Of a DNA stretch of 64,000 nt, positions 41,773 to 45,926 are shown piece after piece. Where the stretch lies: assembly GCA_016789105.1 (NCBI GenBank), contig JAEURN010000010.1:51348-115347 (forward strand), given 5' to 3'. The position numbers were made by a program, and so were the translations under genes. This DNA is from Armatimonadota bacterium (GTDB lineage Bacteria > Armatimonadota > Fimbriimonadia > Fimbriimonadales > Fimbriimonadaceae). The notes beneath the pieces are model-generated. The model searched no databases and was not told where the DNA came from. It saw nothing but the letters and a program-made list of their open reading frames with translations. Numbering within the stretch: the stretch's first letter is position 1; each line of letters opens with the position of its first letter.

Positions 41773-42555
41773 GTGCGAATCTTGGTGACCAACGACGACG
41801 GCATCCACGCGGAAGGGATCGCCGTGTTGGCGAGGGTAGCCAAGCAGTTTGGCGAGGTCGCCGTTTGCGCTCCAGACCGCGAAAAAAGCGCCTGCGGCCA
41901 CGGCATGACGCTCCACGACCCGTTGCGGGTACGGCCCCACGAAGTCGAAGGATGCCGCGGCTATGTGGTTAACGGATTGCCGGTGGATTGCGTCAACATC
42001 GGTTTGGCCGAGGCATTCCCTGATGGGTGCGACCTTGTGCTGAGCGGGATCAACAATGGGCCGAACCTCGGGTTCGACATCACTTATTCCGGGACGGTGG
42101 CCGGAGCCATGGAAGGGTGCATCAATGGGATCGCCAGCATCGCCCTCAGCATGGCGGTTTTTGTCAGCGGCGCGCCGCTCCACTATGAAACCGGCGAAGC
42201 GTGGCTCAATGAAAACCTCGGCTGCCTGATCCCGCTGGCCCCGAAATCGGGCAGCTTTTTGAATGTGAACATCCCGGCCATCGCCTTTGAAGAAATCGAA
42301 GGGGTGCGGGTCTGCGGAATGGGGAAACGAGTCTATGAAGAGCGTGTGGAACGCCGCGACGACCCTTGGGGCCGGCCCTACTATTGGCAAGGTGGGGTTG
42401 CGGTCATGGACGGTTCTGAGCCGGGGACAGACGTCGACGCCATCCGCAACCACTACGTGTCGGTGACCCCAGTGTCTTTGGATTGGACTGACCACGCGGC
42501 ACTCGGCTCCTTGGCGGAGGCGCTATCCGGGCCCTCGCCCCTCCATGGCAGGTGA
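41773..42555 (+). CDS. surE: 5'/3'-nucleotidase SurE
   Basis: RILVTNDDGI, APDREKSA, VLSGINxGPNLG and YSGTVAGAMEG motifs; GTG start at 41773. Confidence 0.95.
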   Translation: MRILVTNDDGIHAEGIAVLARVAKQFGEVAVCAPDREKSACGHGMTLHDPLRVRPHEVEGCRGYVVNGLPVDCVNIGLAEAFPDGCDLVLSGINNGPNLGFDITYSGTVAGAMEGCINGIASIALSMAVFVSGAPLHYETGEAWLNENLGCLIPLAPKSGSFLNVNIPAIAFEEIEGVRVCGMGKRVYEERVERRDDPWGRPYYWQGGVAVMDGSEPGTDVDAIRNHYVSVTPVSLDWTDHAALGSLAEALSGPSPLHGR

Positions 42556-42818
42556 TTTCACTCATGACGTTTGAAGGGCAGCTGTTGCAAACGCTTTCGG
42601 GAGAGACCGTGCTCGAAGTTCTGCTGCGCCACCATATTCCGATTGGCTATTCCTGTCTGGCCGGTGAGTGTTTGAGTTGCACTGTCCGATGCGTTGCCGG
42701 GTCTCCACCACCAGAATCGCAAGAGGGCCTGACAAACCGGATGGTGCGGCTCGGGCATTTTAAGGCATGCCAATGCCCCGCCGACAAGGTGGATCAAGTC
42801 GCGCGGGCTTGCGGCTAA
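42552..42818 (+). CDS. Small 2Fe-2S ferredoxin-type protein
   Basis: GETVLE...SCLAGECLSC...ACQ Fer2 Cys pattern; GTGA overlap with surE. Confidence 0.75.
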   Translation: MISLMTFEGQLLQTLSGETVLEVLLRHHIPIGYSCLAGECLSCTVRCVAGSPPPESQEGLTNRMVRLGHFKACQCPADKVDQVARACG

Positions 42819-43210
42819 TTCCTGCCCTTTTGACGGTTGAAATACCGGACACCATCGTTAGGCTTGAAGAATGTCCGGATGACCTTATCCCGGTTGTAGG
42901 CCAAGAATCCTCCGGTGGAAAAATCGAACTTGGTGATGACGCCATCGGGCCGGTAGGCGATCAAGATTGCTTTGCCGTCCGCCTGGGAATCGCGGAGGGT
43001 CTGCGCCATGAGGAGATACTGCGGCTGGGTGATTTGGCCGAATTCGCGGCCATGTTTTGAAAAGTGTTCCCGCAGGGCTTCTGGATCCCGAAACCCGATC
43101 TGGGTATTCACGTTGGGTGGCGCGGCAGGCGGCAATTCCGGGGCGGGCGGGGCGGCGGCGCACCCAGTCAGAACCCAAGCGAATGCCAAAACCAGCGGCT
43201 GCGCGCGCAT
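42815..43210 (-). CDS. Lipoprotein with a polymorphic-toxin-like (putative BECR-fold RNase) domain
   Basis: Lipobox LTGC; EHFSKHGREFG...Y...A...RPDG...FD...G...IRTFFKPNDGVRYF. Confidence 0.55.
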   Translation of the reverse strand: MRAQPLVLAFAWVLTGCAAAPPAPELPPAAPPNVNTQIGFRDPEALREHFSKHGREFGQITQPQYLLMAQTLRDSQADGKAILIAYRPDGVITKFDFSTGGFLAYNRDKVIRTFFKPNDGVRYFNRQKGRN

Positions 43211-43235
43211 TTCCTCAAGTATGCTCGCCGGCACG

Positions 43236-45434
43236 ATGAGACGGGCCGCCATTGTTGCCTCGGTATTGGCCTTTGGGTTTGCCGGTGCCGACCTAACGCC
43301 TTTCAAGCCGACGACTTCCGAGTTGGCCGACCTTTACCGGCGCGCCGACACGTTGGGCCAAGGCTCGGCAAACCAAATCCTCAACTGGAACTTAGAGTTC
43401 ACGTGGATCGACAACGACACGTTTTACTACCGGCGCGACGTCTCGGCTGGGATCTGGCGATTCACCACCTTTTCCGTGTCCTCCAAACAAAAGACCGACC
43501 TATTCGATCACAAAAAATTGGCCGACCAGTTGGCAACTCTTTCAGGTTCGGAGATACGCCCGGACCGGTTGGGCATCGAGATCACCCGCGTGACCGGCGA
43601 ATCGGTCATTTTCAACTTCCAAGGAAAGCGGTACGCATGGAACCGCAAAGCAGAGACTTTGGCGGCCGCCGCCCGGCCCGAACCGGTTCCTTTGCAGAAC
43701 CAAGGGGTTGTTTCTCCGGATCGGAAACTGGCGGCGCGCCTTCAAGAGGGCCACTTGGAAATTCGGGCAAACAAACCCGATGGGGAGTGGAAGCCGGTTC
43801 CAGGGGCCGAAAATCTCCAAACGGTCAAATGGTCGCCCGATTCCCAGTTTTTGGCCGCCCAAAGCCAGATTCCGGGAGACCGCCGCCAGGTTGCGGTTTT
43901 CGATTCCAGCAAGCCCGGCACGGTCGCCCAGCTGCGGATGCGGCTTTATGACCAGCCGGGAGACAAGCTCGATACCAGTGAAACGTATTTTTACGGCGTT
44001 GCCAGCGGCAAGCTGGTCAAAGCTGCGCACGAGCCCGTGATATGTGGCGGGCACCCCTGGGCCGCACCCCCCGAACTCAGCTGGTGGCGGCCTCCGGGGG
44101 CAAAATCGCCGTCCGCCCTGATCGAGTACGACATCCGTGGGTTCCAAGAGCAGAAACTGGTTGAGATCAACCCTGAATCTGGCGCAATCACCCCATGGGT
44201 GGACGAGGTTTCCCCGACATTCATCCACCTGAGCGGGTTCTTTTGGCAACGGCTCCCCGGGGATGCGGGGGTCGTTTGGAGGAGCGAGCGGGACGGCTGG
44301 GGACACCTTTACCGGTACGACAGTCCGGGCAAACCCTTCCAAATCACACAGGGCCAGTTCGTGGTTCGGTCGATAGAACGGCTCACTTCCACCGAGGTTT
44401 ACTTTTCGGCCAACGGCCGCGAGCCTGGCGACCCGTACTTCATTCGCTACTATCGGGTCGGATTAGATGGCCGCAACCTGGTGGCCCTGACTCCGGGGGC
44501 AGGCACGCACAAGGCCACCTTTTCGCCAGATTTCAAGCACTTAGTGGATGTGCGCAGCACGGTCCAAAATGCCCCGGTGGCAGAGGTCCGCGACAGCGAA
44601 GGCAAGTTGGTGGCGGAACTCGAAGCCTCGGACGCCGGGCCCCTTCGGGGAGCGGGAATCCGTGGCCCCGTGCCATTTGTGGCCAAGGGCCGCGACGGGG
44701 CGACCGACATTTACGGGATCATCCACTTCCCCACCCACTTCGACCCAGGCAAATCCTATCCCGTGATCGAGGACATCTATGCCGGCCCCCACGATTCGTT
44801 TGTGCCGAAATCTTTTCGACCGGTCTTTTACCAACAGCGGCTCGCCGAGCTCGGTTTCATCGTTGTCCAAATCGACGGGATGGGGACGGCAAACCGCGGC
44901 AAGGCATTCCATGATGTCTGTTGGAAAAATATTGCCGATGCCGGGTTGCCAGACCGGATCCTTTGGATCAAAGCGGCCGCCAGCCAGTATCCCCAGATGG
45001 ATGTTTCGCGGGTTGGGATTTTCGGCACTTCGGCCGGGGGTCAAAGCTCCACCGGCGCCCTGTTGTTCCATCCCGAGTTCTACAAAGTCGCCGTCAGTAG
45101 CTGCGGATGCCACGACAACCGGATCGACAAGTTCTGGTGGAACGAACAATGGATGGGCTATCCGGTTGGCCCGCATTACGAACAGCAGTCGAACATCACC
45201 AATGCGGCCAAACTGCAAGGCGACCTGCTGCTGATGGTCGGCGAATCGGATACCAACGTCCCCCCGGAAAGCACATTCAAGTTGGTCGACGCCCTGCAAA
45301 GGGCCGGCAAAGATTTTGAATTCGTTTATCTGCCAGGTTCAGACCATACGGCGGGCGGGCAATATGGAGAGCATAAGCGGAGGGATTTCTTTGTCCGTCA
45401 TTTGCTAGGGGTTGAGCCCCCGCGGTGGAACTGA
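43236..45434 (+). CDS. S9-family (DPP IV-like) serine peptidase, secreted
   Basis: Beta-propeller region, then YAGPH, RVGIFGTSAGG (nucleophile), GESDTNVP and GSDH motifs. Confidence 0.9.
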   Translation: MRRAAIVASVLAFGFAGADLTPFKPTTSELADLYRRADTLGQGSANQILNWNLEFTWIDNDTFYYRRDVSAGIWRFTTFSVSSKQKTDLFDHKKLADQLATLSGSEIRPDRLGIEITRVTGESVIFNFQGKRYAWNRKAETLAAAARPEPVPLQNQGVVSPDRKLAARLQEGHLEIRANKPDGEWKPVPGAENLQTVKWSPDSQFLAAQSQIPGDRRQVAVFDSSKPGTVAQLRMRLYDQPGDKLDTSETYFYGVASGKLVKAAHEPVICGGHPWAAPPELSWWRPPGAKSPSALIEYDIRGFQEQKLVEINPESGAITPWVDEVSPTFIHLSGFFWQRLPGDAGVVWRSERDGWGHLYRYDSPGKPFQITQGQFVVRSIERLTSTEVYFSANGREPGDPYFIRYYRVGLDGRNLVALTPGAGTHKATFSPDFKHLVDVRSTVQNAPVAEVRDSEGKLVAELEASDAGPLRGAGIRGPVPFVAKGRDGATDIYGIIHFPTHFDPGKSYPVIEDIYAGPHDSFVPKSFRPVFYQQRLAELGFIVVQIDGMGTANRGKAFHDVCWKNIADAGLPDRILWIKAAASQYPQMDVSRVGIFGTSAGGQSSTGALLFHPEFYKVAVSSCGCHDNRIDKFWWNEQWMGYPVGPHYEQQSNITNAAKLQGDLLLMVGESDTNVPPESTFKLVDALQRAGKDFEFVYLPGSDHTAGGQYGEHKRRDFFVRHLLGVEPPRWN

Positions 45435-45926
45435 TTGGCGACTTTCGTCCTGACCGGCCCCCCTGGTGCGGGCAAGACCACCTTGGCTACGCGGATCGCG
45501 GAGAAGGTCTGCCCGACCCTCCACATCCCCGTCGACGACTTGCGATCCTGGGTTGCTTCCGGTCTAGCTGAATCGGTCCCATGGACTGAAGAGACGGAGC
45601 GGCAGTTCCAAATTGCCGAAGAGGCCACCTTGAAGATTGCCCAAACGTATGCGGGCCGTGGCTTCCATGTCGTGATCGACCATTGCCGCAACATCGAACG
45701 CCTCAACATGGTTTTCTCTTGCCTTTCCCCGGTCAAAATCCTCGTCCTCCCCAGTCTAGAAACCACCCTCCGGCAGAACGCGGAGCGCCGAAACAAGGAC
45801 TTTGACCCCCAAGTCTTGGTGGAGACGATCAAATTCACCCACAACGTTTTTTTAAATGCCGATTATTCTGGGTGGGAAGTTTTGCGGTCGCTCAACGATA
45901 TCGACCGGTTCTTAGACTCGCTTTGA
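45435..45926 (+). CDS. P-loop kinase / AAA_33-like protein
   Basis: GPPGAGKTT Walker A; DDLR; VVID. Confidence 0.75.
   Translation: MATFVLTGPPGAGKTTLATRIAEKVCPTLHIPVDDLRSWVASGLAESVPWTEETERQFQIAEEATLKIAQTYAGRGFHVVIDHCRNIERLNMVFSCLSPVKILVLPSLETTLRQNAERRNKDFDPQVLVETIKFTHNVFLNADYSGWEVLRSLNDIDRFLDSL

Follow-up and report, generated by a model that had tools for sequence, protein, structure and literature searches.

A predicted lipoprotein with a colicin-D-like toxin domain and the loss of its partner gene in a clade of Fimbriimonadaceae

Genetic location and features of the lipoprotein gene

We analyzed a stretch of 64,000 nucleotides from an Armatimonadota bacterium of the family Fimbriimonadaceae (NCBI GenBank assembly GCA_016789105.1, contig JAEURN010000010.1, positions 51,348 to 115,347 of the forward strand), which is called the window below and to which all window coordinates refer. 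The gene under study encodes a predicted prolipoprotein whose C-terminal domain resembles those of polymorphic toxins and is predicted to have the barnase/EndoU/colicin/RelE (BECR) fold. In most relatives a partner gene lies directly 3' of it; the window belongs to a clade, hereafter the orphan clade, in which this partner is missing. On balance we think that the protein is probably an exported ribonuclease (RNase). The features of the locus are the following:

42815-43210, minus strand: coding sequence of the prolipoprotein P0001, 131 amino acids, with a TAG stop codon at 42815-42817, supported by homologues and by the substitution rates among orthologues.
43160-43210, minus strand: lipoprotein signal peptide MRAQPLVLAFAWVLTG and predicted lipidated Cys17 (lipobox L-T-G-C, residues 14-17), read from the sequence and backed by a clade-wide lipobox.
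43106-43159, minus strand: Pro/Ala-rich linker AAAPPAPELPPAAPPNVN, residues 18-35, with seven Pro and six Ala in 18 residues, modelled without regular secondary structure.
42818-43105, minus strand: predicted BECR domain similar to colicin D and to the CdiA C-terminus of PDB entry 8EY4, residues 36-131 (96 amino acids), assigned by sequence, fold and conserved residues.
43212-43216, minus strand: Shine-Dalgarno sequence GAGGA, 1-2 nucleotides 5' of the ATG, read from the sequence.
42552-42818, plus strand: convergent 2Fe-2S ferredoxin gene, 88 amino acids, whose stop codon overlaps that of the lipoprotein gene and which sits where relatives have the partner gene.
43236-45434, plus strand: divergent gene of a secreted dipeptidyl peptidase IV (DPP-IV)/prolyl-oligopeptidase S9 peptidase, 25 bp from the lipoprotein start, the conserved synteny anchor of the orphan clade.

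The lipoprotein gene is real: the initial search found 60 homologues, the closest with an E-value of 1e-73, and the ratio of nonsynonymous to synonymous substitution rates (dN/dS) among orthologues is low, ranging between 0.06 and 0.22 where computable, with synonymous sites saturated in most pairs. Its start codon is consistent with the starts of orthologues, for example MRTQPLVLALAWVLTGC in P0002. The GC content is 0.591 and the GC content at third codon positions (GC3) is 0.71, equal to those of the genome and of the neighbours. The ferredoxin gene, which matches Pfam Fer2 (E 5.5e-12), ends in a TAA codon at 42816-42818 that overlaps the TAG of the lipoprotein gene, therefore there is no space for a gene 3' of the latter. 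The S9 peptidase carries a signal peptide of its own.

The signal peptide shows the layout MRAQPLVLAFAWV-LTG-C17, with an n-region M-R and an h-region AQPLVLAFAWV followed by L-T-G-C17, that is, a lipobox of the pattern [LVI][ASTVI][GAS]C behind a positive n-region and a hydrophobic h-region. A lipobox of the form L[AVTS]GC or MVGC is kept in all eight orphan-clade orthologues, and the genome encodes both Lgt (PF01790, E 1e-59) and LspA (PF01252, E 3e-30), each above its cut-off. An earlier note on this DNA had described a lipobox LTGC, a Pro-rich tether and a domain of about 95 amino acids with a series of motifs, and all of them are present in the 131-residue frame: EHFSKHGREFG at residues 48-58, YLLMA at 65-69, RPDG at 87-90, FDFSTG at 95-100, IRTFFKP at 111-117, G120 and YF at 123-124. 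Export of a toxin domain by a signal peptide only is the class named 'T2SS' by Zhang et al. (2012; PMC3482391), and the window lipoprotein fits this class. As regards the features of a polymorphic toxin system, the window locus has the export signal and lacks an adjoining immunity gene.

Fold and conserved residues of the C-terminal domain

The sole significant sequence match in PDB was chain A of 8EY4, an 88-residue 'PT-VENN domain-containing protein' that is the toxin in a solved complex of contact-dependent growth inhibition (CDI) toxin and immunity protein of E. coli O32:H37. It was found by phmmer with the single sequence (E 6.2e-6) and with a family profile built from 45 members (E 1.6e-9, residues 48-127). 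An AlphaFold2 model built on the family alignment, with a predicted local distance difference test (pLDDT) score of 91.1 and a predicted template modelling (TM) score of 0.78, has the order alpha-alpha-beta4-alpha: helices at residues 43-57 and 62-74, strands at 82-86, 92-96, 101-105 and 111-115, and a last helix at 121-128. Foldseek against PDB placed 8ey4_A at the top (E 1.9e-6, TM-score 0.83 normalised to the target), next the tRNase domain of colicin D (1tfo, 1tfk, 1v74 and 5znm; probability 0.97-0.99, TM-score 0.41-0.54), and HigB/RelE-type toxins lower in the list. Furthermore, among the BFVD viral models a 456-residue phage protein was matched at E 2.5e-9, and one named 'Colicin D', also from a phage, at probability 1.00.

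By sequence and predicted fold the domain is thus of the same family as the 8EY4 toxin, and by predicted fold only it is colicin-D-like. These results support the proposal of the earlier note, for which it had suggested a Foldseek comparison, that this is a BECR-type toxin domain; more precisely, they support a polymorphic-toxin C-terminal domain with a predicted colicin-D-like variant of that fold. NCBIfam and PADLOC gave no family for the lipoprotein, and the sole Pfam match, DUF5881 at E 0.13, lies under its own cut-off and was disregarded.

The residues H49, K52, H53, F57, Y65, A69, R73, D74, F102, A104, I111, R112, T113, F115, P117, D119, G120, Y123 and R126 are invariant in the family. 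The earlier note had made its reading depend on conserved His/Thr residues, and H49, H53 and T113 are among the invariant ones. A core of H49, K52, H53, E56, R73, D74, R112, T113 and K116 is conserved family-wide and entirely kept in the window copy. K52-H53-x-x-E56 and T113-x-x-K116 fit, by sequence, the Tox-ColD signature '[KH]K, Hxx[ED], [ST], [TS]xxK' listed in a table of Zhang et al. (2012; PMC3482391).

The family, its partner gene and related toxins

A profile search of 1.84 billion representative sequences found 3753 clusters (50% identity) at E<=1e-3, of which 1492 at E<=1e-10, and the best 150 are all proteins of 70 to 257 residues. The N-terminus is hydrophobic in 173 of 209 members, with a lipobox-like motif in 54 of those 173. 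From these sizes and N-termini, being small, stand-alone and exported is the norm in this subfamily. Some members bear the Joint Genome Institute label 'pyocin large subunit-like protein'. In species-representative genomes, 545 relatives were found in Planctomycetota, Gemmatimonadota, Acidobacteriota, Alphaproteobacteria (Reyranella), Eisenbacteria, Actinomycetota, Myxococcota and others; the nearest are metagenome-assembled genomes of Fimbriimonadaceae.

We examined the surroundings of the best 80 of these 545 relatives, and 76 of the 80 loci show a co-directional open reading frame (ORF) of 115-140 residues directly 3' of the toxin-like gene, usually overlapping or abutting its stop codon. 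These partners (for example L004 4480-4860 and L006 4342-4692, with 74 others among L022-L099, from many phyla) have hydrophilic N-termini without signal peptide and carry the motif GL.GL...WE......GY.LGLDDYLNDLD.RQLL ... CLWG ... WWYF, with W32, N52, D53, D55, R57, D83 and W98 invariant; the partners P0061 and P0062, for instance, show 45% identity. The AlphaFold2 model of the partner is all-helical (pLDDT 94.5), and neither a Pfam family, nor a PDB sequence match, nor a PDB fold neighbour of the model was found, so an immunity role is not confirmable by homology to CdiI, ImmD or barstar. Gene order, apparent translational coupling and the combination of an exported enzyme with a cytoplasmic partner suggest from context that the partner is presumably a cytoplasmic inhibitor of unexported enzyme, by analogy with barstar and barnase, and the partners may form a new family of immunity proteins or inhibitors.

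The earlier note had taken a stand-alone lipoprotein with no immunity gene as the peculiarity of the locus. Its first half has to be given up, as stand-alone and exported is how the subfamily usually occurs; its second half stands, since a locus without the partner is the unusual case.

One partner-like domain was found in a genome of the same order, G035, in which no toxin-like gene was detectable. It lies inside a 364-residue open frame (L107; G035:C25:65426-65641, minus strand; E 3.6e-8), which may encode an immunity protein that is orphaned or fused.

The domain is common to several delivery families: CDI, MuF and SAR2788-family toxins and, weakly, RHS proteins. The MuF protein of the Streptococcus prophage EJ-1, with Phage_Mu_F at residues 206-310, matches at its extreme C-terminus, and gp35, the MuF protein of phage SM1, ends in the same domain (tblastn E 1e-3 to 3e-5 for both). 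PHROG 15528 matches the domain (E 4e-7), the 'SAR2788 family putative toxin' of Priestia megaterium plasmids ends in it (the NCBIfam model of that family covers the N-terminal 185 residues only), and a Vibrio RHS protein matches weakly (E 4e-3). With 8EY4, the two MuF proteins and the weak RHS match, the statement in the earlier note that this pattern recurs at the C-termini of CDI, phage MuF and Rhs toxins was borne out. Jamet et al. (2017; PMC5576092) placed SM1 gp35 among the MuF toxins and assigned it a putative nuclease activity.

Downstream of the phage MuF toxins lies a gene of another kind, which encodes a zinc-ribbon protein of the family Cys_rich_CPCC (PF14206) at L101 2724-2930 (E 6e-10) and L102 2754-2930 (E 1e-8). 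The protein 3' of the Priestia plasmid toxin (L100 2794-3108) matches the same family weakly and below cut-off (E 0.007). These neighbours suggest that in Firmicutes this toxin domain has CPCC proteins as its immunity partners.

Loss of the partner gene in one Fimbriimonadaceae clade

In the genome of the window (2.75 Mb in 11 contigs, 99.96% complete), no match to the partner was found at E<=10, either with single partners or with a cleaned hidden Markov model (HMM) of 80 sequences, nor was a Cys_rich_CPCC protein. The conclusion of the earlier note that no immunity gene is available in cis, drawn from the convergent ferredoxin, thus holds at the locus and, for both partner types, across the genome. 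Weak matches of the untrimmed partner HMM inside the orphan toxin genes (E 0.014 in the window) were an artefact, because the stop-to-stop partner ORFs extended upstream into the toxin gene in another frame, and they were gone after the ORFs were trimmed.

A survey of 40 related genomes and the window's own showed the toxin-like gene in 10: the window's genome itself, 7 of 12 further genomes of the genus, 1 of 12 that belong to the family but not to the genus, and 1 of 16 that belong to the order but not to the family. With the partner alignment (A2), matches occurred only in G002, G019 and G027, in each case next to a divergent toxin copy, and in the larger ORF of G035 described above; it gave no match in any of the seven genomes with a window-type gene. 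The two points for which the earlier note had proposed a survey of orthologues, lipobox retention and absence of an immunity gene, both hold in the orphan clade. A maximum-likelihood tree joined the eight orphan sequences in one clade (ultrafast bootstrap 96, SH-like approximate likelihood ratio test 84), which branches within a set of sequences that do have the partner. The partner loss concerns a single clade of Fimbriimonadaceae (Armatimonadota) of genus rank, and it is this lineage-specific loss that makes the locus unusual.

The orphan site has a conserved order in most genomes: SurE, ferredoxin, sometimes an HD hydrolase, the toxin gene and DPP-IV. The DPP-IV orthologues have diverged to 43-64% identity, and in L012 and L013 the 1.5 kb of flank that we looked at contain no DPP-IV. 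The complete genome G005 has an empty site, where 33 bp lie between the HD gene and DPP-IV. From the synteny, the single clade, the purifying selection, the genome-like GC and GC3 and the patchy presence with an empty site, the orphan gene is an old, vertically kept and dispensable resident that functions without the partner. Recent horizontal transfer was ruled out by the GC and GC3 values and by the synteny across species.

A lost partner could also mean that protection comes from elsewhere. The enzyme might still be dangerous, with an unrelated inhibitor encoded at another place in the genome, or with a permissive factor or substrate of the target cell missing from the producer cytoplasm; it would then be a weapon for antagonism, released from the cell or carried by vesicles, and would not have been domesticated. 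The immunity proteins associated with this domain are already non-homologous between lineages, namely CdiI in 8EY4, Cys_rich_CPCC in phages and plasmids and the helical partner in environmental bacteria, therefore a fourth kind is conceivable. In addition, activation by EF-Tu/EF-Ts or CysK is documented for several BECR CDI tRNases (PMC5737660, PMC9071432 and PMC11724271), and the patchy presence in the genus (8 of 13 genomes with that of the window) fits an accessory competition gene. Against this, no small candidate gene is linked, the flanks being the peptidase and the ferredoxin with overlapping stop codons; the 96-residue domain lacks a receptor-binding or translocation module and has no evident way into the cytoplasm of a competitor; and long vertical persistence at a core locus under strong purifying selection is unlike the rapid turnover of toxin cassettes. 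We regard such hidden protection as unlikely and prefer protection of the producer by export of the RNase.

Substitutions in the orphan clade

The eight orphan sequences were compared with 78 typical paired sequences. H49, K52, H53, R73, D74, R112 and T113 are intact in all eight orphans. E84, present in 96% of the paired members, is replaced by V or I in 8 of 8 orphans, and R94, present in 100%, by K in 8 of 8; furthermore, four of the eight carry Q and W at positions 56 and 57, where 100% of the paired members, and also the window copy, have E and F. In these four sequences (L012, L013, L015 and L016, from G003, G008, G011 and G010, respectively) KH(G/H)RQW stands in place of KHGREF, and dN/dS is 0.06-0.07 within pairs.

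Such replacements would be expected if catalysis had been lost or strongly attenuated in the orphan clade and the protein were now a non-toxic extracytoplasmic lipoprotein that binds RNA, nucleotides or another ligand, for which an inhibitor is dispensable. Two residues nearly universal in paired members are gone from all orphans, and the E56Q lineages, in which the acid of Hxx[ED] is missing under still strong purifying selection, indicate that the role of the protein in this clade tolerates the loss of a putative catalytic acid, which keeps a non-catalytic or attenuated protein in play. On the other side, the window copy retains the whole conserved core listed above, and E84 and R94 are conserved neither in the 8EY4 toxin nor in L017, a paired divergent copy from the same genus with Y84, K94 and a divergent partner; they are for this reason more likely to be partner-contact or subfamily-structural residues than catalytic ones. 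Attenuation in the orphan clade therefore seems to us quite improbable, and we retain an active exported RNase as the preferred explanation. The idea that E84 and R94 are partner contacts given up by the orphans is itself weakened by the paired L017 and is a hint only.

Neighbouring genes

The lipoprotein and DPP-IV genes diverge from start codons that lie 25 bp apart (window 43211-43235), therefore their promoters must be shared or lie inside each other's coding regions. This spacing hints at co-regulation of two exported degradative proteins.

On the other side of the lipoprotein gene, a gene of the SurE 5'/3'-nucleotidase family overlaps that of the 2Fe-2S ferredoxin in a conserved block (window 41773-42818, plus strand; L002 4401-6965; L109 1-1468), which in relatives also has a YfbR-like HD 5'-deoxynucleotidase. 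In relatives, this HD gene lies between the ferredoxin and the toxin gene, and it is absent from the window. The nucleotide-salvage theme of this block beside a putative RNase may be coincidence. Downstream of DPP-IV, the window has one gene of a small AAA_33/CPT-like kinase (45435-45926, plus strand), and the relative L002 (1-1720) shows two tandem copies of it and a DUF2330 gene.

Discussion

The domain class and its export by a signal peptide only are already known (PMC3482391). The two-gene cassette, a partner of new fold and the persistence of the enzyme in a lineage that has lost the partner appear to be undescribed in the libraries searched.

We think it probable, on balance, that the window protein is a lipid-anchored extracytoplasmic RNase of the colicin-D/8EY4 type, which acts on RNA outside the cytoplasm and from which the producer is protected by export. 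The family is normally encoded as a two-gene cassette of an exported protein and an overlapping or abutting gene for a signal-less all-helical partner. In the orphan clade the partner would have been lost from the whole genome, and the enzyme gene would have persisted at one site between the DPP-IV peptidase and the ferredoxin/SurE block. The protein would be exported by Sec and processed as a lipoprotein by Lgt and LspA, and its flexible Pro/Ala linker would tether the BECR-fold domain of about 96 residues to the membrane on the extracytoplasmic side. There the domain may act as a metal-independent endoribonuclease, with H49, K52, H53 and E56 on helix 1 and R112, T113 and K116 on strand 4, on RNA in the periplasm, at the cell surface or on vesicles, in the scavenging of released RNA or in low-grade antagonism. 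Efficient export, and not an inhibitor, would keep the producer safe. The RNase activity, the partner as inhibitor, the localisation and the physiological role are all inferred. Members of the Fimbriimonadaceae that live in reactors are considered to scavenge polymers from detritus, and a degradative role of this kind would agree with the divergent arrangement beside a secreted DPP-IV.

Several points weigh against this explanation. The paired relatives also carry signal peptides yet keep the partner, therefore export alone is evidently insufficient for them and something else may differ in the orphans. The partner resembles no known immunity protein, and its role as inhibitor is inferred from gene order. 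The replacements of E84 and R94 and, in half of the orphans, of E56 and F57 count on the same side, as does the remoteness of colicin D: no Pfam family was found for the lipoprotein at E<=0.1, Colicin_D included, and the link to colicin D consists of the fold (TM-score 0.41-0.54, E about 1e-2). Moreover, our literature search returned no paper mentioning 8EY4 or the O32:H37 CdiA and no biochemical data for any member of the domain family.

The last two points leave room for the whole family, 8EY4 included, to have another activity on a BECR-like scaffold, as a DNase or a nucleotide- or protein-modifying enzyme with a different extracytoplasmic substrate. This is further in line with the results of the model searches, in which no NCBIfam family was found for the lipoprotein either. 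We nevertheless hold it to be very unlikely, as every functionally characterised BECR-fold member in PMC3482391 is a metal-independent RNase, the conserved set of His, Lys, Glu, Arg and Thr is typical of such RNases, and SM1 gp35 has been classed as a putative nuclease toxin (PMC5576092).

Beyond the window, it is possible, although doubtful, that an undescribed cassette of a Sec-exported colicin-D-like RNase and a cytoplasmic inhibitor with a new all-helical fold is common to at least eight phyla of soil and water bacteria, and that a Fimbriimonadaceae lineage without the inhibitor uses the lipid-anchored RNase for housekeeping, perhaps in scavenging detritus. If true, this would be a natural case of a toxin disarmed without loss of its catalytic residues. 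BECR-class toxin domains are usually studied as the tips of large delivery machines and always together with an immunity protein, and the locus draws attention to a family of environmental bacteria, very large and so far unannotated, in which the domain is exported alone with a partner of unknown fold adjoining. The Fimbriimonadaceae clade is a natural experiment, in which the partner is gone, the presumed catalytic residues are kept and selection is strong. The reason why the enzyme is safe, be it efficiency of export, clade-specific substitutions or a foreign cofactor, could show how toxins become domesticated, and the family could yield a new pair of RNase and inhibitor as a laboratory tool. 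Should the protein be no more than an extracellular RNase, the result is an ordinary gain in annotation.

Comparison with known systems

Barstar neutralises barnase, and immunity proteins neutralise polymorphic toxins. The paired members of the family share with barnase and barstar the combination of a small signal-peptide-bearing BECR-fold protein, here a putative RNase, and a presumed cytoplasmic neutraliser; however, the family partner has no relation to barstar in sequence or fold, and the window genome lacks the inhibitor half.

The MuF toxins EJ-1 ORF41 and SM1 gp35 carry the same C-terminal domain at their extreme end, but in them a MuF head-morphogenesis domain precedes it in the same protein and a CPCC gene lies 3' of the toxin gene, and the window lipoprotein has neither.

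Colicin D (1V74, 1TFO, 1TFK and 5ZNM) differs from the window protein in its receptor-binding and translocation domains and in having ImmD, and the identity is 15-17% only. Its specificity for tRNA-Arg cannot be transferred. It has in common with it the BECR fold, as modelled, and by sequence the motif logic seems comparable, with K-H-x-x-E on a helix and T-x-x-K on the last strand of the window protein.

The CdiA C-terminus of 8EY4 sits at the end of a very large CdiA filament that is secreted by the type V route and has an entry domain, and CdiI adjoins it, whereas the window protein stands alone behind a lipoprotein signal peptide, without delivery module or immunity gene. The two domains nevertheless show 29% identity over 85 columns and have the motifs H-x-x-K-H-G-x-E-F and R-T-x-F-K-P in common.

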